From an uncultured Bacilli bacterium (GTDB lineage Bacteria > Bacillota_I > Bacilli_A > RF39 > UBA660), in assembly GCA_947628985.1 (NCBI GenBank), contig CANRCA010000002.1:1-42119 (forward strand): DNA of 42,119 nt, written 5' to 3'. Made by a program: the position numbers and the translations under genes. Below, piece by piece: positions 22,519 through 41,961 of this stretch (position 1 is the first letter of the stretch; every line of letters starts with the position of its first letter). A model generated the notes under the pieces. That model was given only the letters and a program-made list of their open reading frames with translations, searched no databases and was not told the origin of the DNA.

Positions 22519-22881
22519 TTATTCAAATGTATCTAAATTAGAACTACAATTGAATGGATGATTTATACAAGGCATACAATCTTTATAACTATTATTACCT
22601 ATTAAATTCATAATTAATGAAACAATTACTGTTACAAAGAAAACTAATGCTGCAGCAATTGCTCTTTTAACTAATTTCTTTTGAGCTTCTTGTATTTTAT
22701 TATCATCTTTTTCACCAACTGCTTTTGCAAAATCTAACATTCCTACAAATATTAATATTATTGGTACTACAATCATAATTCCTAATCTAACAATACCAAC
22801 TATTCTAAGAATTGGTTCTAATCCATTACATAGATCAGCCATATTATTAATTTGTTCTAATAGATTAACTAAATTTAACAT
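22519..22881 (-). CDS. Small two-TM membrane protein with a Cys-rich C-terminal tail (unknown function)
   Basis: 120 aa with two hydrophobic helices (IVGIVRLGIMIVVPIILIFVGML and AIAAALVFFVTVIVSLIMNLI). These flank a charged loop (EKDDNKIQEAQKKLVKR). The tail reads YKDCMPCINHPFNCSS. It is the last gene before the operon terminator. Confidence 0.5.
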   Translation of the reverse strand: MLNLVNLLEQINNMADLCNGLEPILRIVGIVRLGIMIVVPIILIFVGMLDFAKAVGEKDDNKIQEAQKKLVKRAIAAALVFFVTVIVSLIMNLIGNNSYKDCMPCINHPFNCSSNLDTFE

Positions 22882-22906
22882 TTATATCTCTCCCTTACTA
22901 CTTAAA

Positions 22907-22935
22907 ATTTTATATAAAATATAAGATTTTGTCAA
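22907..22935 (-). promoter_or_regulatory. Putative internal promoter upstream of the 120-aa gene
   Basis: The - strand reads TTGACA (22935..22930), a 17-nt spacer, then TAAAAT (22912..22907), followed by the RBS aagggagag. Confidence 0.4.
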
Positions 22936-22957
22936 TAAAAATACATTAAGTTTACGT

Positions 22958-23944
22958 TTATAAATTAACTTTTTTAATAAAATTAATTATTGGATCTATT
23001 TTACCATCTCTATCATTTAAAGCTGGTATTGAATATAATACTTTTAATTTAGTCTCATATCCAAATGTTGCTATATCTTCATTATTTAACATACATTTAT
23101 TTAAAATTATTTTTTTATCTTTTAATTTTTCTAAAATTCCTGCATCTCTTTTTAACATTTTATTTATCATAAGTGTAGATGGTTCAATCAAATAATATAC
23201 TTCTTCACATATTTCAGTGTCTTCATAATCATTTAAATCAATAAATAATATATCATATGATTGTTTTTTCATAATTTCTTTTAATAAATCAGGAGTTGTA
23301 GTACTAATCATTTCAGGATCTTTAAAATATAAGAAATCTACTTTATTTACTTCTAATGCACCTACTAATCTATTATTTTGTAATGTTTTCTTTAACATAT
23401 AAATTAATGATGTAGCTCCAGCATGATTAGTTACATTTTTAAATCCTATTATTCTTAATTTTCCACTACCTTGATTATTAGTACTATTATTAATTACTTT
23501 TTCTACAATAACAGAATCAGATGTTTTATCGTTATCTGCAATTGCCATTTGAGTATCTATTTCTTGTAAATTATGCATATTTACTACATCTTTATATTGA
23601 TGAGGATGTACAAGTAAATAATTTATTCCACTAGTATTTTTAGTAAAATTATAAATACCTAATGATATTAATTTAGATATATAATCTTTTGTATCTGTTA
23701 CTGGATTATTATCAAGTAATAATATAACGTTTTCCATATTTAAATTCATAGAAAGTTTTTGTAAATTTTCTATATTTTCATAATCTCTAATAGCAGTTAT
23801 ATCTAAAATCATTTTATCAAAATAAAAATTAGTAAAAGTATCAATTATTTCATCAACATTATAAACACCTTCTAAAGTTTTCATAACTTCAATGTTTAAT
23901 CCCTTTAAAAGATCTTTATATTTATTATAAATCATTACATTCAT
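22958..23944 (-). CDS. TadZ/CpaE-like protein: receiver-like N-domain plus ParA/MinD-like domain with a degenerate P-loop
   Basis: The N-terminal roughly 120 aa have a receiver-like alternation (MNVMIYN...DKMILDITAI...VILLLDNNP). The C-terminal half starts LRIIGFKNVTNHAGATSLIYMLKK where MinD/CpaE proteins have KGGxGKT(T/S). Position inside a tad-like operon supports the call, which is made from architecture and context only. Confidence 0.35.
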   Translation of the reverse strand: MNVMIYNKYKDLLKGLNIEVMKTLEGVYNVDEIIDTFTNFYFDKMILDITAIRDYENIENLQKLSMNLNMENVILLLDNNPVTDTKDYISKLISLGIYNFTKNTSGINYLLVHPHQYKDVVNMHNLQEIDTQMAIADNDKTSDSVIVEKVINNSTNNQGSGKLRIIGFKNVTNHAGATSLIYMLKKTLQNNRLVGALEVNKVDFLYFKDPEMISTTTPDLLKEIMKKQSYDILFIDLNDYEDTEICEEVYYLIEPSTLMINKMLKRDAGILEKLKDKKIILNKCMLNNEDIATFGYETKLKVLYSIPALNDRDGKIDPIINFIKKVNL

Positions 23945-23967
23945 CTTAGTTAGTCACTCCTTCTTAT

Positions 23968-24459
23968 TTATTTACTACAATCAAATGCTCCTATATCATA
24001 GTATAAAGTTCTTGTTTCTCCAGTAACTGGTATTTTAAATATAAAATTAAAAATTGGAAATTGAACTGCAACATATGTAGTTACTTTATAATATGTATTT
24101 TCTTTTTTATTATTATTTGTACATACTTTTGTTAAACAATATCCACCTGTCATTGCACTTTGTCCATTCTCACATACTATATTTTCAGTAGTAGAATAAT
24201 TATATCCTGCATTCTTTATTTTTAAAAAAGTTAAAGCTTCTACTGAATTATCTTGTTGTAATTGTTCATCGCTAGCATTTTTTAAATCTAATATTTTACT
24301 TGTTGTAAATCCTTCATGTTGTTCAATTAAATCTATTATTTGATTTTTAATATTAAAAGCTCTAGTATAACTAATTGAATATGTTAAAAATGATGCAAAA
24401 AGCACAATAAAAACTATAACAATTCCAAACAACCAAGTTCCACCCATTGCTTCTCTCAT
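23968..24459 (-). CDS. Pseudopilin/TadE-like candidate (N-terminal MREAMGG plus a hydrophobic helix)
   Basis: 163 aa beginning MREAMGGTWLFGIVIVFIVLFASFLTY, followed by a soluble domain with 4 Cys. It lies immediately downstream of the candidate pilin gene, with an aaggag RBS. Confidence 0.45.
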   Translation of the reverse strand: MREAMGGTWLFGIVIVFIVLFASFLTYSISYTRAFNIKNQIIDLIEQHEGFTTSKILDLKNASDEQLQQDNSVEALTFLKIKNAGYNYSTTENIVCENGQSAMTGGYCLTKVCTNNNKKENTYYKVTTYVAVQFPIFNFIFKIPVTGETRTLYYDIGAFDCSK

Positions 24460-24488
24460 ATTAAAAACTCCTTTTTAAATCAAACTTT

Positions 24489-24525
24489 AAAAAAACTATA
24501 AACTATAATCATATAATTTATAGTC
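24489..24525 (-). terminator. Weak A/T hairpin plus T-run after the candidate pilin gene (possible attenuator)
   Basis: The - strand reads actataaa-(14 nt)-tttatagt followed by tttttt, beginning 19 nt after the stop at 24544. The stem is AT-only, so stability is doubtful. Confidence 0.3.
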
Positions 24526-24543
24526 AATTTATTATATTTTTTA

Positions 24544-24813
24544 TTATTCTGCAGGTTTACAAGTTTGAGCATTATATGTTGTAGTACCTTGTGGACAACA
24601 AGCCCATTTACTAACAGTTGCATTGCTTCCTTGATTAACATCTTCTGCTCCTGTTTTTACTGCTACCCATCCTGTTCCATATACATCACATGTTTGTTGA
24701 ACAACTGCTCTTTGAATCATTGGCCAAATTGCAAAATAGAATAATGCACCAACTGCTGCAACAGCAACTAATGCAACTACTGTCATATTTAATTCACCTG
24801 TTGCTTCTTTCAT
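24544..24813 (-). CDS. Candidate major pilin of the Tad-like system (small, hydrophobic N-terminus, 4 Cys)
   Basis: 89 aa: MKEATGELNMTVVALVAVAAVGALFYFAIWPMI, then a 55-aa Gly/Thr-rich domain with C42, C72, C73 and C85. It has a strong RBS (aaaggagg) and its own promoter. Its position directly after tadC is as in flp-tad loci, but it does not match the canonical Flp G/XXXXEY motif. Confidence 0.5.
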   Translation of the reverse strand: MKEATGELNMTVVALVAVAAVGALFYFAIWPMIQRAVVQQTCDVYGTGWVAVKTGAEDVNQGSNATVSKWACCPQGTTTYNAQTCKPAE

Positions 24814-24845
24814 ATTTGATAATTCCTCCTTTATCTTCTAAATTA

Positions 24846-24874: not shown

Positions 24875-24882
24875 GTGATTTT

Positions 24883-25689
24883 TTACATACTGCCAAATAT
24901 TTGTAAAATAGATAGTAATAAAATAACAAGTACACCTGCTCCGGTTGCTACTAACATTGACATTGTTTTCTTTTCCATCTTTTCTAGTCTTTCTTTATAT
25001 TTTGTATCTCTTGATTTAGCTTGTAGATTTGATATTGTTCTTGAAAAAACTATTAATTGTTCTTGTTTTCTTTCTTGACTACCTAAACTAAGTCTATATA
25101 AAAGTCTCATCATACGCATAGAATCTCTAACTGGATATCTACGAGCAAATGCCATATATGGTTCAATTGTTGAATCTCCTGCATCAATAGCTGCTATTAA
25201 CTCACGAAGTCCTGGTTTAAACATTTCAGGAGCATCATCTAAACTTCTAGTAATGGCAACTGGTACTGTATAGTGTTGAATTAAAATTTCTAAACTTTTT
25301 AAATAATATGGTAACTTTAAATTAATATCATGTAAGTGAACTTTATAATAGTTCTTAAGTTTATTATAATCATCTTTAAAGATTAAATACGTAAGAGCTA
25401 AAACTAAAACTAATTTTATTGCAATATTTATATTTTCTATACTAGTAATTACTATAATCATACCTACAATAAATGTAATAATTGCACTTTTTACTCTTTT
25501 TTGATACTTTTCATTTGGAGTAATTCTATCTCCATATTTACTTATAACAAGAAAATCATAATCATCTTCTTTTAATTTTCCAAAAATTACTTTATTATCA
25601 TCAACAAACTTATTAAAACTAAATATTCCATTATAATTAAATAAGAATATTAAGATAACACCAACAATTAAAATTTCTAATCCATCCAT
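24883..25689 (-). CDS. tadC: Tad platform protein, TadC-like (single T2SS-F domain)
   Basis: 268 aa with TM segments flanking a helical cytoplasmic domain (LPYYLKSLEILIQHYTVPVAITRSLDDAPEMFKPGLRELIAAIDAGDSTIEPYMAFARRYP) and a C-terminal TM. TAATG coupling to the tadB-like gene. Confidence 0.7.
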   Translation of the reverse strand: MDGLEILIVGVILIFLFNYNGIFSFNKFVDDNKVIFGKLKEDDYDFLVISKYGDRITPNEKYQKRVKSAIITFIVGMIIVITSIENINIAIKLVLVLALTYLIFKDDYNKLKNYYKVHLHDINLKLPYYLKSLEILIQHYTVPVAITRSLDDAPEMFKPGLRELIAAIDAGDSTIEPYMAFARRYPVRDSMRMMRLLYRLSLGSQERKQEQLIVFSRTISNLQAKSRDTKYKERLEKMEKKTMSMLVATGAGVLVILLLSILQIFGSM

Positions 25690-26588
25690 TATTCAGCCCC
25701 CACATCCTCATGATAATATTTAATACCTGTTATTAAGAAATAAGTATTTATAAGTATTACAAAATGTAACAGCACTTGAACATACCAAGCATCTAATAAT
25801 TGTAAATAACTATCATTTCCTAATAACAATTGAACTAATAATACTAATAAATATAAAGCACATCCAAATGTAAGAAATTGTTTATAAAAATTAGTTCTAT
25901 CAATTCTATCACGATATACACTTTCTACTAACATATCTATATCTTGAAGCATTCCTTCTAAAGCTTCACCTGAATCTTTAGATCCTTCTTTAGTAATTTG
26001 AATAAATAATTGATGCATATTTTTAACTACATAATAGTCATATTTTTCATTCATAAATGTTATAGCTTCATCAATAGTACCATTATCATATGACATTTGA
26101 ATCATTTCTTTTATATCACTAAGTAATGGATCTTCTAAAACTCCTGAATCTCTAACACCTTCTAAAGCTTTAACAAAAGATTGAGTTGTATTATATTCCA
26201 TAATAACGTTTGTAGTGTAAACTTGTATTTGTTCAAATATAAATTCACTATATGCTTTTTTACATCTCATATATGCTAAATATGGTATAAAAGCAATTGC
26301 TAACGCTGCATAAACTATACTCCAAATAATACTATAAAAATATAAATAAGATACAAAAGCAGCTACAATTCCAAATATAATAACTTGAATTAAATATTGT
26401 CTTGGAGTATATTCTTGACCTAATTCTTTTGCTTTTTCACGTACTACTTTAAATGAATATGGAGCATATTTTTCATAAGTATTTCCTATTGTTTTAACAA
26501 TAAATTTATAAGAGTTATTACCTGTATTTCTTCTATAAATATATACAAATATAAATATAGCTACTACAACAAATATCTCAATATACAT
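25689..26588 (-). CDS. tadB: Tad platform protein, TadB-like (single T2SS-F domain)
   Basis: 299 aa with an N-terminal TM, two central TMs, a helical domain (LEGVRDSGVLEDPLLSDIKEMIQMSYDNGTIDEAITFM) and C-terminal TMs. RBS taggaggtg. A split platform (two single-domain proteins) is the Tad/archaeal arrangement. Confidence 0.7.
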   Translation of the reverse strand: MYIEIFVVVAIFIFVYIYRRNTGNNSYKFIVKTIGNTYEKYAPYSFKVVREKAKELGQEYTPRQYLIQVIIFGIVAAFVSYLYFYSIIWSIVYAALAIAFIPYLAYMRCKKAYSEFIFEQIQVYTTNVIMEYNTTQSFVKALEGVRDSGVLEDPLLSDIKEMIQMSYDNGTIDEAITFMNEKYDYYVVKNMHQLFIQITKEGSKDSGEALEGMLQDIDMLVESVYRDRIDRTNFYKQFLTFGCALYLLVLLVQLLLGNDSYLQLLDAWYVQVLLHFVILINTYFLITGIKYYHEDVGAE

Positions 26589-26599: not shown

Positions 26600-27865
26600 C
26601 TATACATCTAATAATTCAAATCCATTTTGACTTTCAGAATTATTATTTATATTTTGATTTACATTATTATCTACTTTAATTAAACTTGGATTATTTTCTT
26701 GACTTACAGTATTTTCTATAACTTGATTTGTTACTTGATTTTGTACTGGTACTTCTTCTTTATGTTCTTCATTATTCTCACTAGTTGATTCTTGTATAGT
26801 ACTATCTATTGGTATAAATGGATCTTCTCTCATCATAACACCTTGACTAGCTAAATAATCAATTAAATGACTAGTTGGGTTATTATAAGTTTCATTTCCT
26901 GTTAAATCACGTGAATATAAAATATTTACTTTTGCTTCATTTGCTTCATCATCAACATAAAATTCTACAACTTGAGTAATTTCTCTTTGAAATCTATTAT
27001 ATTGTTTAGAATAAAATCCTTTTACATGAATTCCAATTTGTATATATCTATGCATACTTTTAACAAATTGATCTATATCTTGACTAGACTCAAGTAGTGA
27101 ATAAAGACGCATAGGAATACTTGATGCTTTATCAGAGTGAATTGTTGATAAAATGTTATGTCCAGATGAAATAGAGTTTCTAACTGCTGTAACGGCTTCA
27201 GCAGAACGAACTTCTGATAGTAAAATCCATCTTGGGTTTTGACGCATACAAGCAACAAGTACATCTGAATATGATGCAATATTATTTGTTTTCATCGCAA
27301 CTATATCTCTTGTTGGATATATTTTATCTAAGTGAAGTTCTAAAGTATCTTCTATTGTTATAATTTTTTCATCCTCTTTTATTTTACTTGCTAAATATTT
27401 TACTAATTCAGTTTTACCACTACCAGTTTCTCCACTTACAAGTATATTGCAGTGCCCTTGAACACAAGTTATTAAAAAGTCATGTAATTTTACTGAAACA
27501 TAATCTTCACTTACTAATTTTTCTTTATTTAATCTTATTTTAGCTGGTGTTTTTCTTATTAAAACAGCTATTCCATTTGTAGCAATTGATTCATGCACAA
27601 AATTAAGACGTAATTCTGCACTTTCAGCATCTAATAATGGATGAGCCATATTAAATGTTTTACCCATTACATTAGAACATTGAAATGCAAGTTTTTCCAT
27701 AACATCATTATTTAATCCTTCAATGTGTTCTGGATATACGCCTTTTGATAAAGATTTTACCCATAATTGTCCACCATTAGAATATGAAATATCTGTAATA
27801 TCATCATTTTCTAATAATGGCATAAGTAAGCCAAAATCTATTTGTGAAAAAACAATTGTGTCCAT
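26600..27865 (-). CDS. tadA: TadA/CpaF-family secretion ATPase (VirB11-like clade) with an N/Q-rich C-terminal tail
   Basis: Walker A VSGETGSGKTE, Asp box ITIEDTLEL, Walker B/arginine region RQNPRWILLSEVRSAEA, His box HNILSTIHS. It lacks the tetracysteine motif of PilB-type ATPases. The last 70 aa or so are low-complexity N/Q/E. Confidence 0.85.
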   Translation of the reverse strand: MDTIVFSQIDFGLLMPLLENDDITDISYSNGGQLWVKSLSKGVYPEHIEGLNNDVMEKLAFQCSNVMGKTFNMAHPLLDAESAELRLNFVHESIATNGIAVLIRKTPAKIRLNKEKLVSEDYVSVKLHDFLITCVQGHCNILVSGETGSGKTELVKYLASKIKEDEKIITIEDTLELHLDKIYPTRDIVAMKTNNIASYSDVLVACMRQNPRWILLSEVRSAEAVTAVRNSISSGHNILSTIHSDKASSIPMRLYSLLESSQDIDQFVKSMHRYIQIGIHVKGFYSKQYNRFQREITQVVEFYVDDEANEAKVNILYSRDLTGNETYNNPTSHLIDYLASQGVMMREDPFIPIDSTIQESTSENNEEHKEEVPVQNQVTNQVIENTVSQENNPSLIKVDNNVNQNINNNSESQNGFELLDV

Positions 27866-27877: not shown

Positions 27878-28636
27878 CTAATCAACCAAATCTGGTTCAA
27901 TTTGTTCAGTTTTACTTTCTATTAATCCTCTTAAATATTCACTTTTAATATTAGTTTCTTTATCGTAATTAGCATTTCTTGGAACTGGTATTAATTCACC
28001 ACCGCTTAAATTCATAGCTTTTCTAAGTAATAAATGATAATCTTCAGAAACTGAGAATATTAATGCTGTTGCATTTTTTTGATCTGCACTTTTCTTAAAT
28101 ATATGATTTCCTGATTCATCTTTAACTGCTAGTATTTCAATACCTTCAATTAATTTACCAAGTGCTAATTTTCCATCTTCATAAGTTTTATAATATAAAT
28201 CAATTTTATCTCCAGGATATATTGCATTTCCATATGTAGATGAGGCACTTACTGGTAATGAAACTATTGTATTATTATTAACTATATTAGACCATGCTGA
28301 ATCTGGCATAACACTCCAATCAACTACAGCTGATGAATAAAACATACTTCCTTCAGGAATAAAAGTATTATAATTCACATATTTTCCTAATAATGAATTT
28401 GGATTTGTTATAACATTATCAGTTATCATAGATGAAGCTACTTTAACTGTTTTATAACAATCTTCTGTAATTTCTGTTCTAGCATCAAGATTTTTAGTTG
28501 CTATTGGAATACTTATTGCATTTATTGCTCTATTAACTCTATAGTTATATCCAACTATTAATATTACTACACAAATTATACTAGCAAGTAATGTAACAAT
28601 ACTTTTATTATGAAAAAACTTACTTATTATTTTCAT
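27878..28636 (-). CDS. cpaB: CpaB/RcpC-like protein (SAF-like domain plus beta domain), copy 2
   Basis: N-terminal TM, then IPIATKNLDARTEITEDCYKTVKV and NTIVSLPVSASSTYGNAIYPGDKIDLYY, which match the CpaB pattern (SAF-like segment, then ...PGD.VD...). Paralogous to the adjacent 294-aa protein. Confidence 0.65.
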   Translation of the reverse strand: MKIISKFFHNKSIVTLLASIICVVILIVGYNYRVNRAINAISIPIATKNLDARTEITEDCYKTVKVASSMITDNVITNPNSLLGKYVNYNTFIPEGSMFYSSAVVDWSVMPDSAWSNIVNNNTIVSLPVSASSTYGNAIYPGDKIDLYYKTYEDGKLALGKLIEGIEILAVKDESGNHIFKKSADQKNATALIFSVSEDYHLLLRKAMNLSGGELIPVPRNANYDKETNIKSEYLRGLIESKTEQIEPDLVD

Positions 28637-29517
28637 TGTATACCTCCATCATTAACACCTGAATTATTATCTTGATTTTCAGTATCATTATTTTCTACAT
28701 TATTGTCATTGTTTCCTACAACAGGAACATTTCCTCCAATTGTTCTATCTTGACTTTCAACATCAATTGCATTATCTAAAATATATCTTTGAATAACAGA
28801 ACTTACTACTCTTGTTTCTTTAGGATTTTTAGAATATTCTGCATTTCTTGGAACCGGGAATATTGTACCATTTGCATAAGATGCTTTTCTTAAAAGTAAA
28901 TGCATATCTTCAGGAACACTAAATACTAAATATGTAGGTGATTTTGGAGCACCAATAGTTTCAAAAACATTATCACCTTCACTATCAGTTACAGAAAGAA
29001 CTTTAATACTTTCTATAAATTTACCTAACATTAATTTTCCATTTTCTAATGTAGTAGAAAAATATAAATCTATATAATTTCCAGGGAAAATAGAATTTCC
29101 ATAAGTACTATCTAAAGTTACAGGTAAAGCTACTAAAGTATTTCCATCTGGTATATTTTCATATAAACTTGATGGTAAATCTTCCCAAGATACTACCATA
29201 CTTGAATAAAATAATCCATTATTTGGTATAACTGCTGTATTACTAACATATTTTCCAATTATATCATTAGTATTTGTAAGAACATTTTTATTAACTACAC
29301 CACCTGGTACTTTTCTAGTTGATACCATTTCTGCAGTAATTAATGTTCTTGGTTCTAAATCTTGAGTTGCATATGGGACGTTAACTGGTTCTGTTTCCTT
29401 TTGTATTTTATAATTATATGCCCAATATAAAATACCCAATGCCAATAATATTGCTAAAATTGTAACAGTATTTTTATTTTTTAAAAATCTTTTAATTCCT
29501 ATTATAATAGTATTCAT
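28633..29517 (-). CDS. cpaB: CpaB/RcpC-like protein, copy 1, with an N/D-rich C-terminal tail
   Basis: N-terminal TM, VPYATQDLEPRTLITAEMVSTRKVP and NTLVALPVTLDSTYGNSIFPGNYIDLYF. It has a 4-nt overlap with copy 2. The tail reads GNNDNNVENNDTENQDNNSGVNDGG. Confidence 0.65.
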   Translation of the reverse strand: MNTIIIGIKRFLKNKNTVTILAILLALGILYWAYNYKIQKETEPVNVPYATQDLEPRTLITAEMVSTRKVPGGVVNKNVLTNTNDIIGKYVSNTAVIPNNGLFYSSMVVSWEDLPSSLYENIPDGNTLVALPVTLDSTYGNSIFPGNYIDLYFSTTLENGKLMLGKFIESIKVLSVTDSEGDNVFETIGAPKSPTYLVFSVPEDMHLLLRKASYANGTIFPVPRNAEYSKNPKETRVVSSVIQRYILDNAIDVESQDRTIGGNVPVVGNNDNNVENNDTENQDNNSGVNDGGIQ

Positions 29518-34012: not shown

Positions 34013-34094
34013 AATATAAGTGTAACACATTTTTATTTATTTTTAAACAAAAAAATATAATGTTAAATCAAACATCATATTCTTCATTTAATAA

Positions 34095-35417: not shown

Positions 35418-37045
35418 TCTTCCTCCTCTAATAATACTGCATGTACAACTAATCTTCTATTATTTCCTGTTGCACATGTAGATAGTGTTAATATTTTATC
35501 ATCTTCATCCACATCAACACCTAAATTAAACATACTTCTATTTTTAATTAATTTAATAAAATCTTTTTTTTCAGCTTGTGATTCAAAATTAATTTTTAAA
35601 TAATCTGTTGTATAATCTACTTTATATATTGAAAATATTTTAAATTTATAATTACCATTTTCTGTATCTAATGAAATAATCATATTTTCTTCATTACTTC
35701 TCCATGAAGAATTTAATACTTTTTTCAGTGTTCCAAACATAGTTCCATTTAACATACTATGCCCATAAATAATTGTATTATCATTTAATTCTTTATAATT
35801 ATTTCTATAATCTAAATATATCCATCCTATTGTATTTTTCTTTTTATATATATCATGTGTCAAATAATAATTATTATCACTATGTTGAAGTACTGGATAA
35901 TATATATTTGTATCTTTTACCATTAAATATCCTACTGTTTCATTATTAATTGATTTTAATACTCCAAGTGAATTATCAAATTTATATTTAGATACTATAT
36001 CTTCTTTAGGTTCTTCTGCATCTATATCTACATCTATATCATCTTCTGTTAATTCAAAGTTTCCTTCTATTATATCTTGTTCTGTTCTATTAGTATTTGA
36101 AGCATACGATTGATTAAATAAATCCATATTTAATTTATCTACACTTAATTTTTCAATATAATCATATGATTTAACTATTACTAAACAAACTATACATACA
36201 TATACAGATAATACACTTATTAATTTTAAGTTATTAAATGTTAATTGTTTAAATAAATTATTTTTTAAAAATGAATTAGCATAAATAATTCTAAATTCAC
36301 ATGTATAATCTTTTTTACATTGTTTACTTAATCCTTTAAGCCATTCAAAGTTATTAACAATAAAATTTCCCTTATCATATTCTTGATGTAAAAATACAAT
36401 TACATTTCTAGATTCATCATTTTTAACTAAATTAACTATAGACTTAATTAATTCTTTTGAATATACATATACATGTATAGCTTTTAAATTATAATTAATA
36501 TTTAAAAATTCTCTTAAATCATCTATTAATTCTGGATAATCTTCTTTTATTTTAATTACTTTTTTATAATATAATGTATCATTTTCAAAAGCATCTTGTT
36601 GTGTTGCAAACCTAAATGATATATTTTTTGGTAATGATGTAACAACATTTATATCTTTTAAATTAAATTTTTTTCTAACTCCTATTGGCATATAATAACA
36701 ATATATATTTTTAATTTCAGTATTTAAAAATAATTCATAATCTTGTAAACTTATAGTAGAAGAAAAATCTAAATATAAATCTGTTATTTCTAAAAATCTA
36801 ATTAATGAAAGAACATATTTAAAATTAATTAATCTAAGTATTCTTAAAGTATCAATATTTTCATTTTCTTTTATTAATTTACCTATTATTTCAGTTAAAT
36901 GTCTTTTATAGTATTTAAATGTATAAAAAAGAGAATTTTTGTAAAATTTATTTTTATTAACAAAAACTTTTTCATCATTTTTAACTTGTCTATAGTTAAA
37001 AACCAAAGAATTATTTATAATTGCTAATACTATATATTCTTTCAC
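35414..37045 (-). CDS. srtB: Class B sortase with a roughly 270-aa N-terminal cytoplasmic extension
   Basis: GTG start with a GGAG RBS. Central TM LISVLSVYVCIVCLVIV. The C-terminal domain carries SrtB blocks: VGYLMVKDTNIYYPVLQHSDNNYYLTHD, GWIYLDYRN, TIIYGHSMLNGTMFGTLKK (catalytic His), LTLSTCA (catalytic Cys) and RRLVVHAVL (Arg). Residues 1-270 match nothing I recognise. Confidence 0.8.
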   Translation of the reverse strand: MKEYIVLAIINNSLVFNYRQVKNDEKVFVNKNKFYKNSLFYTFKYYKRHLTEIIGKLIKENENIDTLRILRLINFKYVLSLIRFLEITDLYLDFSSTISLQDYELFLNTEIKNIYCYYMPIGVRKKFNLKDINVVTSLPKNISFRFATQQDAFENDTLYYKKVIKIKEDYPELIDDLREFLNINYNLKAIHVYVYSKELIKSIVNLVKNDESRNVIVFLHQEYDKGNFIVNNFEWLKGLSKQCKKDYTCEFRIIYANSFLKNNLFKQLTFNNLKLISVLSVYVCIVCLVIVKSYDYIEKLSVDKLNMDLFNQSYASNTNRTEQDIIEGNFELTEDDIDVDIDAEEPKEDIVSKYKFDNSLGVLKSINNETVGYLMVKDTNIYYPVLQHSDNNYYLTHDIYKKKNTIGWIYLDYRNNYKELNDNTIIYGHSMLNGTMFGTLKKVLNSSWRSNEENMIISLDTENGNYKFKIFSIYKVDYTTDYLKINFESQAEKKDFIKLIKNRSMFNLGVDVDEDDKILTLSTCATGNNRRLVVHAVLLEEEE

Positions 37046-37101: not shown

Positions 37102-37617
37102 CTATTCGATTTCATATTTTTCTATTAAATTATTAAATGCTTTATAATCAACCATTTTAAGTTCACTACTATAAGCTTCAACTGCTTCTCCATTTTTAAT
37201 ATAAATAAACATTGGAGCAGCAACTATTTGATCACTAATATTTGAAAATTTATTTTTTAAAATATCTAAATATGAATCTTTATATTCTGCTATATTCCAA
37301 TAAGTAATCTTATCCATTAAATTTTTATTTTTTATTTCTTTATATAATTTCTTTTCCATACTATGTACTTTAGATGAACCAGTATAACTTACTATTAATA
37401 TGGCTTCATTAGTTTCAGAAAAACTAAATTTTAAATCATCAGAAGATATTTGATTAATTTTATTATCATAAAAAATAGTATGATTTAATTCATTTACTTG
37501 ATAATTTAAATAAAATGCACGAATATATAAAGTAATTACAATAGTTAATATTGATACTAGTATTACTATAAAATAATTTTTATTAGATGTTTTTAAAATA
37601 TTTTTTAAGCTTTTCAT
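37102..37617 (-). CDS. Membrane-anchored thioredoxin-fold-like protein lacking cysteines (tentative)
   Basis: N-terminal TM. The pattern AILIVSYTGSSKVHSMEKKLYKEI ... APMFIYIKNGEAVE resembles the thioredoxin beta-alpha-beta plus cis-Pro beta-strand layout. However, GSSK occupies the CxxC position and the protein has no Cys. Confidence 0.3.
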   Translation of the reverse strand: MKSLKNILKTSNKNYFIVILVSILTIVITLYIRAFYLNYQVNELNHTIFYDNKINQISSDDLKFSFSETNEAILIVSYTGSSKVHSMEKKLYKEIKNKNLMDKITYWNIAEYKDSYLDILKNKFSNISDQIVAAPMFIYIKNGEAVEAYSSELKMVDYKAFNNLIEKYEIE

Positions 37618-37661: not shown

Positions 37662-37689
37662 AATAAAAATGTGGATTAATTACCACATC
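37662..37689 (-). terminator. Terminator after the 1201-aa gene
   Basis: The - strand reads atgtgg-taattaat-ccacat followed by ttttattt, starting 2 nt after the stop at 37691. Confidence 0.45.
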
Positions 37690-37690: not shown

Positions 37691-40600
37691 TTATTTATTT
37701 TTATTATAATCTGAAATTCCATCACCTTTATTTACTACAATGCCATAATTTGTTGATCCTCCAGCTCTAATATTATTTAAGAATTCGCTTTGGCAATTAA
37801 AGTATTTTCCATCTTTAATTTCACAATTTCTTAATGAATTATCAGTATAATTTTTATTTTTATTATAATTTTTTATTGTTGTTATTGCTTCAGGTGTTAG
37901 TTCAAAACTATATTCTAAATATTCATCTGATGTAATAATAGAATTAGAAGATGCTTCTATTTCTTCTCTAGCTTGTTGTCCTTCTGGAGTAGACCAATTA
38001 TTTTCTCTATCTAATCCATTTGGAAATAAATTATTTAAATCAACATTTCTAAAAATTGTATTTCCATTTCCAGTATTATTTTCATATATTGTAACATTAG
38101 GTACTTTAACATTAATATAACAACTAAAACTATTTTTTTCTTTTAATTTTTGTACAAAACTATCTGATGTATTATTTCTATAATAAGTTCTTATAGTATT
38201 AGTATCATAGCTTTGAGTTACAGGACATTCACGAATACTATTATTAGATGTTTTATTGCAACTATTATATGCATTTTTAGATAGTGGATAAGTATAATCA
38301 TCTAATTTAATTAAATCACTACTATTTTCTAATGCTTTTCTTACTCTTCCTGTATATGATTCTGTTTCAAATTTACTATTATTATAAAATCCTATATTAC
38401 TAGTTACTTCAAAAGCAGCAAAATCATTTTTTGGTATTTCAGTATTTATAATATTTTTAAAGCTTGTTGAGAATGATTTACCACTAACACTAGCAACATC
38501 ATTTTTACCAATAGAATTATTATTGTCAAAACTACTTAAATTGTAATCTTCTTTAGTACTTGAATAATTTAAACAATCATTTACATCACCAGTACAATAT
38601 TTTATATTTAAATTTTCTACATCACTATTAATAGTTTTATCTACTTCTATATCAGATTTATTTGTTCCTACATAATTATTGTTATCAATATATTGAGCTC
38701 CACCTTTATATTCTATATTACTACTCCAAATATCATCATTTTTTGATGAAACTGCAAAACCATAATTATTATTTTCAGAATATAAATTTTGTATATTTTT
38801 AAATACATTTCCTACTTTATTATCTTTTGGTTTATTAATATTACTTGGCATATCTTTAATAAAGTTACAATTGTATAAATCATATATTAATTCATTTAAG
38901 TTTTCTGTTCTTTGTCCTTCTTTATAATTTTTTAAAGCAAGAACAGCAAATAATGATTTCCAATTATCTATTTCATCAAATGTACTATATCCAGCATTTT
39001 TTAAATCATTTTCTGTTATACCATATTTATCTTTCCAACTATTGTCTTTCTTAAATGAATTGTTATCATAGAATATTTGTGATACACATGTTCTTTTTAC
39101 TTTAATACCACTAGATAATTTTTTAGTTTCTGTATTAAATGCTTCAAATGGTTTTATATCATATGTAAATGTTTCACCAGATGCAGAATTTATTCTATCT
39201 GCTAAATAATAATCAACTTCATCACTACAATATACTCTACATAAATCAGTATTTACTCCAAAATATGAACTATAATCATAATAATTTTTTCTTTCATTTG
39301 AACCCATATTAGCAATACAACTAAGTGATGGATCTTTTACATATCCACTATAGTAACCATTTGTAGTAGCGTTGCTATTACATTTACCATATGATTCTCT
39401 TAAATTATAATTATCACATCCGCCACTACAAGTTACTTTTATTTCATAATCTTTTGGACTATTCCAACTTTGTTCTGTTTCATTATAGTCAGAACTATTA
39501 TCAGTATTTTTATTTGTTCCAAATGAGAATAATATTTGATTATCTTTATTTGAACATGATACATATTTATCAACTGTATTTTTAGTTCTAGATACTGGTG
39601 TTCTAATAATTACATGATATGTATTATATAATTCTTTAATTTCTTCATCACAAACTGCAAATGGAATTATTTCATGTTCTACTGTTCCTTTAGAACCATC
39701 AAAATATGCGTTTTCATCATTAATAATTCCATCACATTCTTCTGCTACTTTATTATCTTTATCAGGTCTACAATAAACATAATTTTTATTACCTTGACTA
39801 TCAACTGTATACCATTTATCAATTATTACATTACAATATTGTTTAATATATGCTTTTTCAGTATCCGTTAAATCTGTATATGTATCAATTTTATTACAAT
39901 TATATTTTAATTTCTTTTCAGTTACTATTTTATGTGGGAATGATAATTCTAATCTTGATTCTTCACCATCTGTTACTATTTCAACATCAGTTGGTTCAGC
40001 ATTTGTATCAATTCCTACTAATTCAGATAAATGTTCTTCCATTTTATCATTTCCAAAATAAGAACTAAAGAATAATGAGAAAGCATTTCTATAAGTTCCT
40101 TCTCCACATACTAAACCTAATGGAGCGCTTGAACATGTTATTTTATTAAAATATGTATTACTTTTACTTGCATCAATATAATTATTTTGTTCTGATTTTA
40201 TACTATTAAATAAGTAATTCATTATATAATCATGTGTGATTTTATATACATTAATTATACCATTTTTTGCATTATCAGATATATATGTTACTCTTCTATT
40301 ACAAACACCATTTTGAGATACTACATTTGCAACTCCAGTTCTAAGATCATAATAACCAGCTTGACCTGAATGGACTCCCCATAATCTTAACGCAAGTTGA
40401 GTATCTTGCTCTGAAATTGGGTAATTATTTTTTTGAGTTTGCCATGCTGATTCAATTAATATATTAGCAAAGCCACAATCTACAGTTCCTCTACTACTAG
40501 AACATTTTGAAACATCAAAATTTGTATCTACTCTATATCCTGCAGCACTATCAAAACCTTGATTTGGATTTACACAATATGCAGGGTCTCCATTAGCAGT

Positions 40601-41296
40601 TGTAAATGTTGGGGTACATACATTTAATTCTTCATCTTTAGGAGTACATTTATAAACAGGACATGTAAGCGTAAATTCTACACTACATGTACAATTACTA
40701 CTTCCTACTGCCTGATTACATGCATTTGTAAAATAATTTGTACTAGGTTCATCATTACCTGTAAATGTAAATTCATTATTCCAAGATTTTGTTGAAGAAC
40801 TTGAACTACTACATATACACATAGCTTCTCCATGAGGCCCTGTATTTCCATTTGGACGACAACCTGTTCCTCCAGAAGAACAAGGAACAACTCGTGAACT
40901 TGAACTAGTTACGGTATATGTACATGATGCTTTAGCAGTTATTTTAACATTTGGATCATCTTTATTACATCTTGTAAATGTTGTTTGTTCTGAACTTTTT
41001 GCATCTGCAGATTCCATTGAGCCAGATAACTGTTGATCTCTAATTGAAGTAATTCCATCAAAAGAATTTACACCACTTCCCCCAAATGTAGAAAAACCTA
41101 TCAATGTTGGATTATCATTATCACATATTTTTAATCTTGCATTCCAATCAGTTTGCCACTGACTTTGAGGATTTTCAGTTATTTTTTCACAAATAAGATC
41201 TTTTTCTGGATTACCATCTCCTATAGCAAAAATAATTGAAGAAAAAGCAAAAAATGAAAAAATTATAAATAGAAACTTTTTATTATTATTTTTCAT
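37691..41296 (-). CDS. Giant secreted cysteine-rich protein, copy A (1201 aa), unknown family
   Basis: Signal peptide MKNNNKKFLFIIFSFFAFSSIIFAIG. Cys-rich throughout. Collinear paralog of 30125..34012. The start is coupled (TAATG) to the preceding 221-aa gene. Confidence 0.8.
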   Translation of the reverse strand: MKNNNKKFLFIIFSFFAFSSIIFAIGDGNPEKDLICEKITENPQSQWQTDWNARLKICDNDNPTLIGFSTFGGSGVNSFDGITSIRDQQLSGSMESADAKSSEQTTFTRCNKDDPNVKITAKASCTYTVTSSSSRVVPCSSGGTGCRPNGNTGPHGEAMCICSSSSSSTKSWNNEFTFTGNDEPSTNYFTNACNQAVGSSNCTCSVEFTLTCPVYKCTPKDEELNVCTPTFTTANGDPAYCVNPNQGFDSAAGYRVDTNFDVSKCSSSRGTVDCGFANILIESAWQTQKNNYPISEQDTQLALRLWGVHSGQAGYYDLRTGVANVVSQNGVCNRRVTYISDNAKNGIINVYKITHDYIMNYLFNSIKSEQNNYIDASKSNTYFNKITCSSAPLGLVCGEGTYRNAFSLFFSSYFGNDKMEEHLSELVGIDTNAEPTDVEIVTDGEESRLELSFPHKIVTEKKLKYNCNKIDTYTDLTDTEKAYIKQYCNVIIDKWYTVDSQGNKNYVYCRPDKDNKVAEECDGIINDENAYFDGSKGTVEHEIIPFAVCDEEIKELYNTYHVIIRTPVSRTKNTVDKYVSCSNKDNQILFSFGTNKNTDNSSDYNETEQSWNSPKDYEIKVTCSGGCDNYNLRESYGKCNSNATTNGYYSGYVKDPSLSCIANMGSNERKNYYDYSSYFGVNTDLCRVYCSDEVDYYLADRINSASGETFTYDIKPFEAFNTETKKLSSGIKVKRTCVSQIFYDNNSFKKDNSWKDKYGITENDLKNAGYSTFDEIDNWKSLFAVLALKNYKEGQRTENLNELIYDLYNCNFIKDMPSNINKPKDNKVGNVFKNIQNLYSENNNYGFAVSSKNDDIWSSNIEYKGGAQYIDNNNYVGTNKSDIEVDKTINSDVENLNIKYCTGDVNDCLNYSSTKEDYNLSSFDNNNSIGKNDVASVSGKSFSTSFKNIINTEIPKNDFAAFEVTSNIGFYNNSKFETESYTGRVRKALENSSDLIKLDDYTYPLSKNAYNSCNKTSNNSIRECPVTQSYDTNTIRTYYRNNTSDSFVQKLKEKNSFSCYINVKVPNVTIYENNTGNGNTIFRNVDLNNLFPNGLDRENNWSTPEGQQAREEIEASSNSIITSDEYLEYSFELTPEAITTIKNYNKNKNYTDNSLRNCEIKDGKYFNCQSEFLNNIRAGGSTNYGIVVNKGDGISDYNKNK

Positions 41297-41961
41297 TATT
41301 TATTTCCTTCTTTCTTTTTTATTGATTTTACTTTAACAAAATAAATTATAGTAATAATTATTAAAGGTATTAAAATATAAATACTATATTCTAAAATTTT
41401 TAATAAAACTTCTGATAAAGTTAATTTATCTCCGTTTATATCTTGAGCATATTCTTTTAAAATATCATTAAATTCTTCTCTATCTATATTTTTAGTAGCA
41501 TCAGTAAATGTTTGACATAATTCATGTTCTGGATATTTTTCACAATAATCTGTTTTTATATAATCATTATATGGTGGAACTGTATATTTCAAAGTCTTTA
41601 AAAGTTCATTATTACAACTACTTTTTTCATTTCCATATATTTCAATTATATATGTTTCTGCATCTATATTTGTATAACATCCAAGTCCATATATACCAGC
41701 ACTTTCATAATTTTTACCATCTGTTTTATATCCTGTACCATCTGTTACTTGTATTTTTATATCATCTCTCATTGGAGTAATAGAAAGAAAATATGCAAAT
41801 TTATTATCATCAGAAATATCATTATCTTCTTTAAATAATACTTTTACATTTGTAGCCCATTCATTTAATTCTTCATCATTACATATTGCTTTTACATTTT
41901 CAAAATGAAATATAAAACACATAAATATTAAAATATAAAATAGTTTTTTTATTTTAATCAC
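41296..41961 (-). CDS. Small secreted Cys-containing protein with a C-terminal TM anchor (family member 1)
   Basis: GTG start per the track. AICNDEELNEWATNVKVLF, GCYTNI, SCNNELLKTLKYTVPPYN, YCEKYPEHELCQTFTD, then a C-terminal TM and a KVKSIKKKEGNK tail. Confidence 0.7.
   Translation of the reverse strand: MIKIKKLFYILIFMCFIFHFENVKAICNDEELNEWATNVKVLFKEDNDISDDNKFAYFLSITPMRDDIKIQVTDGTGYKTDGKNYESAGIYGLGCYTNIDAETYIIEIYGNEKSSCNNELLKTLKYTVPPYNDYIKTDYCEKYPEHELCQTFTDATKNIDREEFNDILKEYAQDINGDKLTLSEVLLKILEYSIYILIPLIIITIIYFVKVKSIKKKEGNK

Follow-up and report, generated by a model that had tools for sequence, protein, structure and literature searches.

The cluster described here is a conserved chromosomal gene set that may, at a little under even confidence, build a Tad-type (type IVc-like) filament carrying giant surface proteins. 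It lies in a stretch of 42,119 nucleotides (the window) from an uncultured, wall-bearing gut Bacilli lineage with very AT-rich DNA (about 22% GC). Seventeen consecutive minus-strand ORFs occupy positions 22519-41961, with the coordinates and order given in the first-pass annotation and with spacing that ranges from overlaps of 1-4 nt to a maximal gap of 105 nt. In the direction of transcription, the genes and two terminator-like hairpins are:

41296..41961, minus strand: G01, small bitopic partner, 221 aa (ORF and TM prediction; no Pfam or NCBIfam family)
37691..41296, minus strand: G02, giant Cys-rich exoprotein 1, 1201 aa, 41 Cys (Sec-type signal peptide, no C-terminal anchor)
37669..37688, minus strand: predicted terminator-like hairpin after G02, ATGTGG-N8-CCACAT followed by TTTTATTT (weak, AT-rich, 6-bp stem)
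37102..37617, minus strand: G03, PedC-like/DUF6568 thioredoxin-fold protein, 171 aa (PF20207, E=1e-19)
35414..37045, minus strand: G04, class B sortase, 543 aa (TIGR03064, PF04203)
34776..35417, minus strand: G05, third small bitopic paralogue, 213 aa (ATGA overlap with the sortase gene)
34095..34757, minus strand: G06, small bitopic partner 2, 220 aa (ORF, TM prediction, related loci)
30125..34030, minus strand: G07, giant Cys-rich exoprotein 2, 1301 aa, 49 Cys (ORF, Cys count)
29623..30042, minus strand: G08, DUF5411 prepilin-like protein, 139 aa (PF17424, E=1e-49)
28633..29517, minus strand: G09, CpaB/RcpC-like bitopic protein 1, 294 aa (TIGR03177, PF16976, SAF domain)
27878..28636, minus strand: G10, CpaB/RcpC-like bitopic protein 2, 252 aa (profile matches, annotated CpaB, paralogue of G09)
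26600..27865, minus strand: G11, TadA/CpaF-family secretion ATPase, 421 aa (PF00437, E=5e-29)
25689..26588, minus strand: G12, TadB-like polytopic platform protein, 299 aa (hhalign to a T2SSF-annotated protein)
24883..25689, minus strand: G13, TadC-like polytopic platform protein, 268 aa (hhalign, TM layout)
24544..24813, minus strand: G14, candidate major pilin, 89 aa, 4 Cys (N-terminus MKEATG/ELNMTVVALVAV kept in relatives)
23968..24459, minus strand: G15, prepilin-like protein, 163 aa, 4 Cys (N-terminus)
22958..23944, minus strand: G16, conserved cytoplasmic protein, 328 aa (no TM; same position in 15 of 15 loci tabulated)
22519..22881, minus strand: G17, two-TM hairpin protein, 120 aa, 4 Cys (TM at 27-45 and 75-93; last cluster gene)
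about 22444..22489, minus strand: predicted terminator-like hairpin after G17, GTGTAATA...TATTACAC followed by TTTTTTGTT (found by eye)

Adjacent genes overlap at G01/G02 (TAATG), G04/G05 (ATGA), G09/G10 and G12/G13. Terminators had been placed after the 1201-aa gene and after the last gene; hairpins with T-runs do occur at both sites, but both are weak and AT-rich, the second with a long loop. Because the co-directional run continues past gene 17 with three more minus-strand genes (a 756-aa pilin-like protein, ltaS and a 204-aa protein), strand alone cannot delimit the unit. That the cluster goes beyond chance follows from the conservation of its gene set in related loci, despite internal rearrangements. 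It is found again in about 25 related loci whose length allows a judgement, from MAGs and metagenomes of uncultured gut Bacilli, and wherever the flank of a related locus suffices it is complete (metagenomes from rabbit, rumen and other sources). Sub-module order varies while membership is kept: the sortase trio (G03, G04, G05) lies between the giant cassettes in the window, after both in L001, L003 and L006, and before them in L015, L017-L020 and L059. The chromosomal site is fixed in relatives, with ltaS adjoining downstream and UvrD upstream, and searches of plasmid and phage collections with the giants gave no match; the locus, first termed a co-directional island, is not a mobile one. Part of the synteny may reflect inheritance, not selection, since the loci all belong to a single clade and have flanking genes in common.

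The downstream half is, by its family assignments, a monoderm Tad-type filament machine, and the Tad-like core recognised earlier is confirmed. The best PDB matches of the ATPase are CpaF (1e-19) and FlaI (2e-18), followed by VirB11 (4e-14). The two CpaB-like proteins are paralogous (hhalign 100%); G09 matches annotated CpaB (E=4e-26) and scores on TIGR03177 (E=8e-13, under the cutoff of that model) and on PF16976 (2e-5). G12, which has no Pfam match, aligns with a T2SSF-annotated protein from a Tad-like operon on a Parageobacillus plasmid (hhalign 95.3%, E=2e-8), and G13 with the product of the gene directly after T2SSF in that plasmid operon (78%, E=2e-5). Both share one TM layout and keep the gene order of their homologues, T2SSF and the gene after it, within this operon, annotated as CpaB-ATPase-T2SSF. 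G16 matches nothing in Pfam, NCBIfam or PDB, even with a 17-sequence profile, and its former designation as TadZ-like is unsupported (hhalign 0.7% to a TadZ-like AAA protein). G17 directly follows G16 in all 15 loci inspected and shows sub-threshold similarity to the T4SS_pilin and Mbov_0395 pilin-like families (E about 3e-3).

In three proteins (G08, G14 and G15) an M[KR]E[AS]xxG leader precedes a hydrophobic helix, and the N-termini of G08 (MKESVWGY) and G15 (MREAMGG) are kept across relatives. G15 had been called TadE-like; only its prepilin-like N-terminus speaks for that label, and it has no family match in Pfam or NCBIfam. G14 has neither the Flp G/XXXXEY motif nor a Flp Pfam match. DUF5411 homologues may end in Dockerin_1 (five distinct loci), Flg_new or, in one relative, Peptidase_C39_2 modules, which suggests that the filament is exposed and modular. 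As reported in the first-pass annotation, the window contains no detectable prepilin peptidase: the 17 genes, the 756-aa gene and eight flanking ORFs, among them the two candidates with a polytopic membrane topology, were scanned and the other ORFs were read by eye.

The upstream half is largely without annotation. Neither Pfam nor NCBIfam has a family for the giants and the small proteins, in agreement with the first-pass annotation. G02 has no PDB match either. A profile search of the unannotated giant family gave 357 representatives. The two giants are 45% identical over their cores and 41% over their full lengths; in G07, a core of ~980 aa with about 22 conserved Cys follows a variable N-terminal region of ~320 aa. 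The AF2 model of this core (pLDDT 44) is unusable. The giants are the fastest-evolving members of the cluster, with a median identity among relatives of 33-34%, compared with 39-44% for the small proteins, 59% for ltaS next to the cluster, 84% and 78% for the platform pair and 87% for the ATPase. Surface exposure of the giants is supported by their predicted Sec signal peptides and lack of an anchor, the conserved Cys, this fast evolution and the Flg_new repeats present in two family members.

Each giant appears tied to a small partner. G01 has a signal peptide and an ectodomain that contains Cys, and its C-terminal TM helix is followed by a K/R tail; its homologues sit directly before giants in related loci, and the partner genes are predicted to be translationally coupled to the giants. 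Small protein and giant are fused in 4 of 156 giant representatives (P0163, P0168, P0180, P0185), and G06 aligns with the N-terminus of P0180 (E=1e-37). In L015 and L059 the small-giant-DUF5411 triad has been duplicated as a whole, and the giant and DUF5411 genes overlap in L059. Gene overlaps, triad duplication and fusions thus probably link all three proteins. The check that the first-pass annotation set for the association of giants with tad genes did not refute it: 11 of 13 informative loci found through giants carry the sortase module or tad genes. Some giants are orphans adjoining gatCAB, away from tad genes and with no small or DUF5411 gene nearby.

G04 is a bona fide class B sortase, and the extended SrtB described at first was confirmed. 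It exceeds the TIGR03064 cutoff (162.6 against 153.75 bits), and its AF2 model (pLDDT 82) retrieves SrtB structures as top Foldseek matches (E=1e-20). Its catalytic H429, C524 and R531 are invariant across 90 homologues. The protein comprises a 270-aa N-terminal cytoplasmic domain of beta/alpha repeats, one TM helix and the extracellular SrtB domain. The N-terminal domain has no Pfam or PDB match, is absent from the solved SrtB structures matched, and has 282 homologous clusters; among the 120 matches listed, all are sortase-domain proteins of ~540 aa except a few truncated fragments. This cytoplasmic domain suggests coupling with a cytoplasmic partner. G05 belongs with the G01 family (hhalign 97.3%, E=2.5e-11), has a near-invariant KHGI at the C-terminus of its own family, and is predicted to be translationally coupled to the sortase; a homologue lies 3' of the sortase in every related locus inspected that includes one. 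The invariant triad, the occurrence of the N-terminal domain on sortases among the matches listed and the constant adjacency of G05 indicate a sortase probably dedicated to the cluster. No cluster protein bears an NPQTN-, PXTG- or LPXTG-type sorting signal, and no pilin with a sorting signal was found. G03 scores 71.5 bits on PF20207 (cutoff 27.1) and is extracytoplasmic, with an N-terminal membrane anchor (TM at 16-34). Its earlier description as Trx-like stands for the fold but not for a redox role: it has zero Cys and its relatives 0-1, and CxxC is absent in 15 of 15 sequences, so that a disulfide-forming or oxidoreductase function is unsupported.

The most likely reading, at a little under even confidence, is that the giants are filament-associated tip or surface proteins, by analogy with PilY1 or the Kil tips. 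The ATPase, the platform pair G12/G13 and the CpaB-like G09/G10 would form the membrane machine, with G14 as major subunit and G08 and G15 as minor prepilin-like subunits. Sec would export both giants, which the coupled partners G01 and G06 would hold at the membrane. Giant and DUF5411 subunit would then be loaded together onto the growing filament, which would push the giant through the wall and display it, much as PilY1/PilC ride minor-pilin tips in type IVa systems and Kil "tips" customise Tad pili. The ~980-aa core may serve as docking or structural part and the hypervariable Cys-rich N-terminus as binding part. The sortase trio would act as a dedicated processing unit, docked to the machine by the cytoplasmic domain, whose transpeptidase cleaves or wall-anchors a component. 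This sortase step is a guess, because no cluster protein has a canonical sorting signal; the small anchors are the best candidate substrates because they alone have sorting-signal-like C-termini. Several observations speak against the tip reading: the orphan giants lack small and DUF5411 genes, the giants are non-pilin-like in contrast to KilN and TadG, the window lacks a prepilin peptidase and G14 the Flp hallmarks, and G03 appears unable to form disulfides, yet the cargo is Cys-rich.

The filament might instead not be the end product but a short pseudopilus, a T2SS-like piston pushing folded, disulfide-rich giants of 130-150 kDa through the thick wall, which is unlikely overall. The giants would be released from small membrane chaperones and reach the medium or the surface. 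Giants with neither anchor nor sorting signal, a dedicated membrane-bound partner for each as a possible holding chaperone, a conduit that two CpaB-like proteins could form, and G11 as sole ATPase of the cluster, with no retraction ATPase, are all consistent with a piston, and DUF5411 operons in Clostridia were labelled "secretion-related" by an earlier in-silico study (PMC9523054). However, a monoderm has no outer membrane to cross, and the orphan giants lack partners. G14 looks abundantly made, with a strong Shine-Dalgarno (AAAGGAGG), its own promoter-like site upstream and a hairpin with T-run downstream. Dockerin, Flg_new and peptidase modules on DUF5411 fit an exposed filament rather than a buried piston; together with the duplicated small-giant-DUF5411 triad, these modular pilins favour the adhesin or tip reading.

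It is distinctly unlikely that the locus joins two independent neighbours, an adhesive monoderm Tad pilus and a surface-protein module, co-inherited vertically in a narrow clade. The second module, comprising giants, small anchors, SrtB and the PedC-like protein, would be sortase-dependent or membrane-anchored. The restriction of the loci to related uncultured Bacilli with shared housekeeping flanks (ltaS, UvrD), the solitary giants elsewhere in the genome, the DUF5411/CpaF operons reported in Clostridia without sortase or giants, and the weak hairpins, which could divide the run into separate transcription units, are compatible with such an origin. Yet the DUF5411 gene lies within the giant module, overlapping and duplicating with the giant as noted above, and the sortase trio changes its place with respect to the giant cassettes and DUF5411, yet always stays in the cluster. 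Identity between the housekeeping neighbours is down to 59%, leaving ample time for unlinked genes to scatter, and the cytoplasmic domain of the sortase suggests a partner inside the cell.

The same hardware might also act against or upon other cells, with tips serving a bacterium of reduced genome as contact-dependent effectors or as devices for attachment to host or prey, in Kil fashion, and not as plain adhesins; this is very unlikely. The Kil precedent of a Tad-like apparatus with interchangeable disulfide-rich tips, the rapid divergence of the giants and their several paralogues per genome, the peptidase module on the DUF5411 protein of one relative and the location of a relative's sortase (P0127) on a contig of about 1.29 Mb, perhaps a sign of a small genome, agree with this proposal, but neither the giants nor their neighbours showed a toxin, lytic or immunity domain and a T3SS*-like partner is not present. 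That the cluster is an apparatus for conjugation or DNA transfer, built on a VirB11-like ATPase and a VirB2-like two-TM pilin, is scarcely credible: the ATPase scores on VirB11 and TrbB models, G17 scores weakly on T4SS_pilin and Mbov_0395, and the related Parageobacillus plasmid operon adjoins TrbL and other transfer genes, but all T4SS matches are far below cutoffs, the ATPase is nearer CpaF and FlaI, VirB4, VirD4, VirB6 and relaxase were not found among the cluster genes, and the fixed chromosomal site and the giants unmatched in plasmid and phage collections do not fit.

In the literature searched, the combination of Tad machine, unusual sortase and giant Cys-rich proteins is not described. 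Tad/Flp (type IVc) pili are exemplified by Caulobacter Cpa, Aggregatibacter Tad and Bifidobacterium breve Tad (PMC13170226). In common with them the present cluster has an ATPase of the CpaF/TadA family, a pair of single-domain platform proteins, proteins similar to CpaB/RcpC, and small prepilin-like subunits whose short leaders end in Gly. In B. breve, too, the locus does not encode the prepilin peptidase. Unlike Tad/Flp loci, the cluster lacks a Flp motif, Flp, TadE and T2SSF Pfam matches and a recognisable TadZ; it has a duplicated CpaB, a DUF5411 minor subunit and seven additional genes, for the two giants, the three small bitopic proteins, the sortase and the PedC-like protein.

PilY1/PilC are the tip adhesins of type IVa pili, large proteins of ~1000-1200 aa that are exported by Sec and are not pilins; they are encoded beside minor pilins and displayed on the filament, with a conserved docking and a variable binding part. 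The giants resemble them in size, Sec export and minor-pilin neighbours, while a relationship in sequence or fold is without support; PilY1 also works with another machine type and lacks both a membrane partner of its own and a sortase. Class B sortases include the pilus-polymerising Spy0129 of S. pyogenes and the type II pilus sortase B of S. pneumoniae. The C-terminal domain of G04 superposes on SrtB structures, including 3psq and 4y4q, and keeps the His-Cys-Arg triad, but the 270-aa cytoplasmic domain before the anchor and the lack of a sorting-signal substrate in the locus set it apart. G03 resembles PedC-type bacteriocin accessory oxidoreductases (PF20207) in its full-length Pfam match, N-terminal anchor and extracytoplasmic location, and differs in lacking, like its relatives (15 sequences), the CxxC active site.

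Another related system is the DUF5411 CpaF/PilC operon of Roseburia, Ruminococcus and Eubacterium, predicted from genome context only to be secretion-related (Miller et al., 2022, PMC9523054). DUF5411, a platform protein, an ATPase of the CpaF type and an InlB-repeat (Flg_new-like) protein are common to both; the published operon has 8-9 genes, and the present cluster, in Bacilli, adds the seven-gene upstream module. The word "sortase" is absent from the main text of that paper, and giant Cys-rich and PedC-like proteins do not figure in its operon description. Functionalisation of Tad pili by variable disulfide-rich tip complexes has a published precedent (PMC12075869) in Myxococcus Kil, where the variable proteins are predicted to lie at the filament tip (PMC12075869, PMC8460266). 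Kil lacks a sortase and works with T3SS* in a diderm, whereas the present cluster has a sortase and belongs to a monoderm; Kil tips are trimers built from pilin-like proteins (KilL/M/N), and the giants, at 1200-1300 aa, are exported by Sec, are not pilins and have a small membrane protein as a separate partner. In both, variable disulfide-rich proteins from paralogous cassettes would determine what a Tad-type machine does (PMC12075869, PMC8460266).

Seventeen minus-strand open reading frames (G01 to G17 in the order of transcription) run back to back from position 41961 to 22519, with gaps of at most 105 nt and overlaps of at most 4 nt, which bears out the co-directional run described in the first-pass annotation. 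The gene calls of that annotation were mostly right; three of its labels are not borne out (Trx in the sense of redox-active, TadZ and 'island'). Stop and start codons overlap in four gene pairs, for instance TAATG between a small gene and a giant gene and ATGA between the sortase and a small gene, and weak terminator-like hairpins lie 3' of the 1201-aa gene and 3' of G17. Judged from sequence, the cluster would comprise a Tad-type filament system to which a novel module of seven conserved accessory genes is added, along with a giant family that lacks annotation and a new sortase architecture.

The minus-strand run continues beyond G17 for three genes, which encode a pilin-like product of 756 aa, LtaS and a protein of 204 aa; the cluster is therefore delimited by conservation rather than by strand. 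Since G17 is followed directly by ltaS in 15 of the 15 metagenome loci inspected, the intervening 756-aa gene represents a window- or lineage-specific insertion. It encodes the sole N_methyl protein and lies outside the conserved cluster. Comparable N_methyl 'modular pilins' occur inside the cluster in the related locus L019 (8734-9813, DUF6273) and upstream of a stand-alone giant gene in locus L011. The surroundings of the cluster in the window are as follows.

1368-11565, minus strand: wall teichoic-acid block, with a tagGH-like ABC transporter, glycosyltransferases, CDP-glycerol glycerophosphotransferase-like (tagF-like) genes, a tagD-like cytidylyltransferase, a gpsA-like gene and a tagO-like GT4
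11645-13885, plus strand: surface protein with two SH3_3 domains, a cadherin-like domain and Dockerin_1
13901-15370, plus strand: surface protein with a cadherin-like domain and a BatD-like domain
15.3-17.2 kb: LCP protein
17988-19961, minus strand: LtaS-type enzyme
20069-22339, minus strand: protein of 756 aa that begins like a classical type IV prepilin (KGFTLVE; PF07963, N_methyl) and contains GLUG repeats, between G17 and ltaS

The teichoic-acid, LCP and LtaS genes were called by eye and confirmed with Pfam, as was rpsP, which also lies within the region of ~1-11.6 kb; the teichoic-acid, LCP and LtaS genes indicate that the host has a Gram-positive wall. The DNA looks chromosomal. GC content is ~22% over the window and drops to 18-20% inside the wall teichoic-acid block. 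The Dockerin_1 domain of the protein at 11645-13885 indicates that the organism employs dockerins; no cohesin was seen within the window.

The predicted filament machine is encoded in the ten downstream genes, G08 to G17. G11, a secretion ATPase by its PF00437 match (E=5e-29), has CpaF (1e-19) and then FlaI as its nearest solved structures, both before VirB11; it scores under the cutoff for every NCBIfam equivalog. G09 and G10 are N-terminally anchored, CpaB/RcpC-like and paralogous to each other (hhalign 100%). Their matches to TIGR03177 (E=8e-13 and 2e-5) and PF16976 (2e-5 and 9e-5) are all sub-threshold, and BLAST against an annotated CpaB gives E=4e-26 and 2e-21. The Tad-like core proposed at first reading thus stands for the ATPase and the CpaB-like proteins. 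The two candidate platform proteins, G12 and G13, belong to no Pfam family, do not match PF00482 even at E<=10 and have no detectable relationship to each other. They have a common TM layout, compatible with TadB/TadC, and are collinear with T2SSF and the next gene of a Parageobacillus plasmid operon (CpaB-AAA-ATPase-T2SSF): by hhalign, G12 corresponds to the annotated T2SSF protein (95%) and G13 to the gene downstream of it (78%).

NZ_CP063416.1, 23139-41519: Tad-like operon (L021) on a Parageobacillus thermoglucosidasius plasmid, with CpaB, AAA ATPase, secretion ATPase, T2SSF, an unnamed gene, an 81-aa pilin-like gene (G/ENGT site) and DUF4320

The plasmid operon, which directly adjoins TrbL-family and other transfer genes, is followed by a gene for a 173-aa polytopic protein, possibly a TadV-like peptidase.

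Three proteins of the cluster, G08 (PF17424/DUF5411, E=1e-49), G14 (89 aa) and G15 (163 aa), begin with a common short leader, M[KR]E[AS]xxG, followed by a hydrophobic helix, and these N-termini are strongly conserved in relatives. The leaders are N-terminal and class-III-like. In G14 (N-terminus MKEATG/ELNMTV) the short leader and hydrophobic helix precede a small Cys-containing head, a pilin-like architecture, and neither the EY of the Flp processing motif G/XXXXEY nor a match to the Flp Pfam family was found. A promoter-like site and a strong Shine-Dalgarno sequence precede the gene and a hairpin follows it, features that fit with a major subunit. G16 (328 aa, cytoplasmic) had been labelled TadZ-like. 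This label is unsupported beyond a resemblance seen by eye: no Pfam, NCBIfam or PDB match was obtained (the last with a 17-sequence profile), and hhalign against a TadZ-like AAA protein gives 0.7%. G17 (120 aa, two TM helices) has no significant family match, T4SS_pilin being sub-threshold (E=3.5e-3). Pfam scans and open reading frames read by eye agree with the earlier remark that no prepilin peptidase (TadV/CpaA, A24) is encoded in the 42-kb window; the ~10-kb flanks of those relatives that have precomputed Pfam annotation show none either.

The seven upstream accessory genes, G01 to G07, include a trio formed by a PedC-like protein (G03), a sortase (G04) and a small membrane protein (G05). 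G04 is a true class B sortase (TIGR03064, 162.6 bits against a cutoff of 153.75). The top Foldseek matches of its AF2 model (pLDDT 82) are the SrtB structures 1rz2, 4lfd and 5b23 (E=1e-20, target-normalised TM-scores <=0.90), and the His-Cys-Arg triad (H429, C524, R531) is invariant across 90 homologues. The single TM helix (residues 273-291) is preceded by a 270-aa domain, which must be cytoplasmic given sortase topology. This domain matches no Pfam family and no PDB sequence, and the Foldseek list for the whole model is occupied by sortase-domain matches. It displays a regular beta/alpha pattern with a period of ~24 residues, LRR-like by eye only. Homologues fall into 282 clusters; among the 120 matches listed, all are ~540-aa sortase-domain proteins except a few truncated fragments. 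A pattern scan for C-terminal sorting signals (NPxTx/PxTG motif, hydrophobic stretch and basic tail), which covered every open reading frame of 80 aa or more from the window and ~55 related loci, returned none. The TM helices of the small proteins open with a loosely conserved (N/E)(Y/W)G, which was rejected as too variable for a motif. G03 matches PF20207 over profile positions 1-164 of 164 (71.5 bits, cutoff 27.1). The earlier label Trx-like, read as redox-active, is not borne out: the window protein has no Cys, its 14 homologues have 0-1 each, and CxxC occurs in none, so a redox role for the PedC-like protein is rejected.

The two giants, G02 (1201 aa) and G07 (1301 aa), contain 41 and 49 Cys, have Sec signal peptides and no anchor, and are 45% identical in their cores. 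G01, G05 and G06 form a paralogous set of small bitopic proteins. Each starts with a signal peptide and has a TM helix followed by a basic tail at its C-terminus, and hhalign gives 97.3% between their two sub-families. A search of 1.84 billion cluster representatives with a profile of the giant core (~980 aa) recovers 357 at E<=1e-3, of which 134 reach E<=1e-30. Pfam and NCBIfam scans of the window giants were empty, and giant profiles built from 9 and 62 sequences found no match in the PDB; when 34 diverse relatives were scanned with Pfam, Flg_new in two of them was the sole notable match. Modeling of the 979-aa core by AF2 with 8 sequences reached a pLDDT of only 44, and Foldseek of that discarded model gave nothing below E=0.9. 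In four of 156 giant representatives (P0163, P0168, P0180 and P0185, each from a separate 50%-identity cluster) the small partner and the giant are fused, an arrangement that frameshifted gene calls could mimic: a complete small-partner domain with TM helix and basic tail is followed by a second signal-peptide-like segment and then the giant core.

Scanning 185,579 species genomes for the giants yielded 14 loci, every one in a metagenome-assembled genome. The samples are rabbit, rumen and others, and the taxon labels are uncultured Bacilli, 'Tenericutes' or Erysipelotrichaceae. These uncultured carriers are Bacilli of low GC content; RUG12046 (CACYLI01), GCA_016648615.1 and a contig listed at ~1.29 Mb that encodes P0127, the sortase of a relative, are examples. 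All 17 window proteins were compared by tblastn with the 14 genome loci and with 15 metagenome loci. The entire set is present wherever the flank suffices, and gene tables agree. The order of sub-modules varies and membership is constant: the sortase trio may separate, follow or precede the giant cassettes, and the PedC-like gene is sometimes further upstream. The idea of an 'island', in the sense of a mobile unit, is rejected, since the cluster occupies a fixed chromosomal site beside ltaS (15 metagenome loci) with conserved flanks, and the giant core is absent from plasmid and phage collections. Upstream, relatives have a trio consisting of an 862-864-aa protein without Pfam match, a 54-61-aa protein and a divergent HD-domain gene, usually preceded by UvrD. 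The window stops 158 nt upstream of G01, and the HD gene is not visible in those last 158 nt. Features of the related loci are as follows.

L001, 1413-4765: upstream trio
L017, 5899-9274: upstream trio
L019, 3422-7172: upstream trio
L019, 18552-21089, minus strand: YfhO-family membrane protein, inserted on the opposite strand between the DUF5411 and CpaB genes
L020, 18597-21134, minus strand: YfhO-family membrane protein, inserted likewise

Conservation differs widely between the parts of the cluster.

Median identity of relatives to the window protein
ATPase G11: 87%
G12: 84%
G13: 78%
DUF5411 and G16: 64%
Sortase and ltaS: 59%
CpaB pair: 58%
PedC-like protein: 50%
Small proteins: 39-44%
Giants: 33-34%

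By these identities the motor is more tightly constrained than its housekeeping neighbour ltaS. That the Tad core is better conserved than neighbouring housekeeping genes suggests a device that is probably central to the carriers' lifestyle, and the giants and their partners evolve fastest, matching the expectation for exposed binding proteins.

Several features tie the two halves together, among them the small-giant fusions and the identity tiers given above. DUF5411 is encoded immediately after a giant, on that side of the cluster, and the two genes overlap in locus L059; in both L015 and L059 the small-giant-DUF5411 triad is duplicated as one unit. The window copy of DUF5411 (139 aa) is bare, and homologues carry C-terminal modules: Dockerin_1 (five distinct loci), Flg_new repeats (L017/L018) or Peptidase_C39_2 (L019/L020).

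Modular DUF5411 copies in related loci
L001, 16709-17722
L008, 16792-17793
L009, 20605-21417
L010, 16652-17470
L013, 16094-17083
L017, 17148-18554
L019, 17392-18525

Such carriage of modules is, as far as domain content can tell, the behaviour of 'modular pilins' that would be exposed on a filament, and those pilin-like subunits that bear dockerins are a hint that display on the filament might work by cohesin-dockerin pairing.

The functional reading favoured over the others is that of a tip or adhesin: a monoderm Tad-type machine may build a filament displaying Sec-exported giants at its tip, a tentative proposal to which we give a little less than an even chance. It draws on gene content, homology, synteny, fusion, duplication and rates, and every interaction in it is putative. 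The filament would consist of G14, assembled by the Tad-type machine and primed by DUF5411/G15. The giants, exported by Sec and held by the small partners, would be loaded with DUF5411 at the tip and displayed through the wall by the filament. The sortase trio would form a machine-associated processing unit whose transpeptidase acts on a non-canonical signal. As functional analogues of giant display we propose PilY1 on type IVa pili and the exchangeable, disulfide-rich tips of the Kil system (PMC12075869).

The machine could instead work as a piston of the T2SS kind that exports the giants, which is unlikely. GspD secretin, GspC/L/M and N_methyl pseudopilins, sought as marks of type II secretion, were not detected in the 17 genes. 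Two independent systems that are merely neighbours are a distinctly unlikely explanation of a locus in which a giant triad including DUF5411 is duplicated as a unit. The carriers all come from a single lineage, and their shared ancestry inflates the synteny signal. Giants also occur alone at a second conserved site immediately 3' of gatC-gatA-gatB, a neighbourhood that lacks small-partner, DUF5411 and tad genes.

L058, 10001-15040: orphan giant downstream of gatCAB
L011, ~9500-13165: orphan giant downstream of gatCAB

The gene after the orphan giant of L058 encodes a Pro/Ala/Val-rich repeat protein of 253 aa. The same hardware might also serve an antagonistic or attachment use like that of the Kil system; such a use is improbable. 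A conjugation apparatus, for which VirB4, a coupling protein and a relaxase were sought in the cluster and not found, is rejected as very improbable indeed.

A hybrid organelle, in which the Tad-type machine and a dedicated sortase form a single device, is a further, unlikely proposal: the 270-aa domain would tether the sortase to the cytoplasmic side of the machine, the non-canonical signal might be the TM-plus-basic-tail C-termini of the small partners, and either giant exchangeable tips or the filament base would be fixed covalently to the wall.

Among described systems, the closest relative is a DUF5411/CpaF operon predicted in silico in Clostridia (PMC9523054); the main text of that report makes no mention of a sortase, and its description of the operon contains no giants. 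Full-text searches, mostly of non-subscription journals, found no published link between a Tad system and a sortase, a PedC-like protein or such giants, no literature on DUF6568, PF17424, PF20207, DUF4320 or 'PedC-like', nothing on sortase with 'Flp pilus' and CpaF in Firmicutes, and nothing relevant on RF39 pili. The locus defines an unannotated family of ~360 representative giant Cys-rich exoproteins and a sortase-specific cytoplasmic domain. Compared with the Tad/Flp pilus, the cluster has the ATPase and the CpaB-like proteins, whereas the Flp motif, TadV and TadZ are missing or left open. Gram-positive pili are of two unrelated kinds, sortase-linked covalent fibres and type IV-like non-covalent filaments. 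Sortase-assembled pili are built from pilins with a sorting signal and a pilin-motif lysine, whereas no protein of this cluster has a sorting signal. In this locus a predicted-active sortase that is connected through the membrane to the cytoplasm lies within a Tad-type operon, an arrangement kept across the whole lineage. If sortase and Tad machine cooperate, they would embody a new assembly principle, and the hybrid organelle, if true, would be a third route to monoderm pili that joins the non-covalent and the sortase-dependent paradigms.
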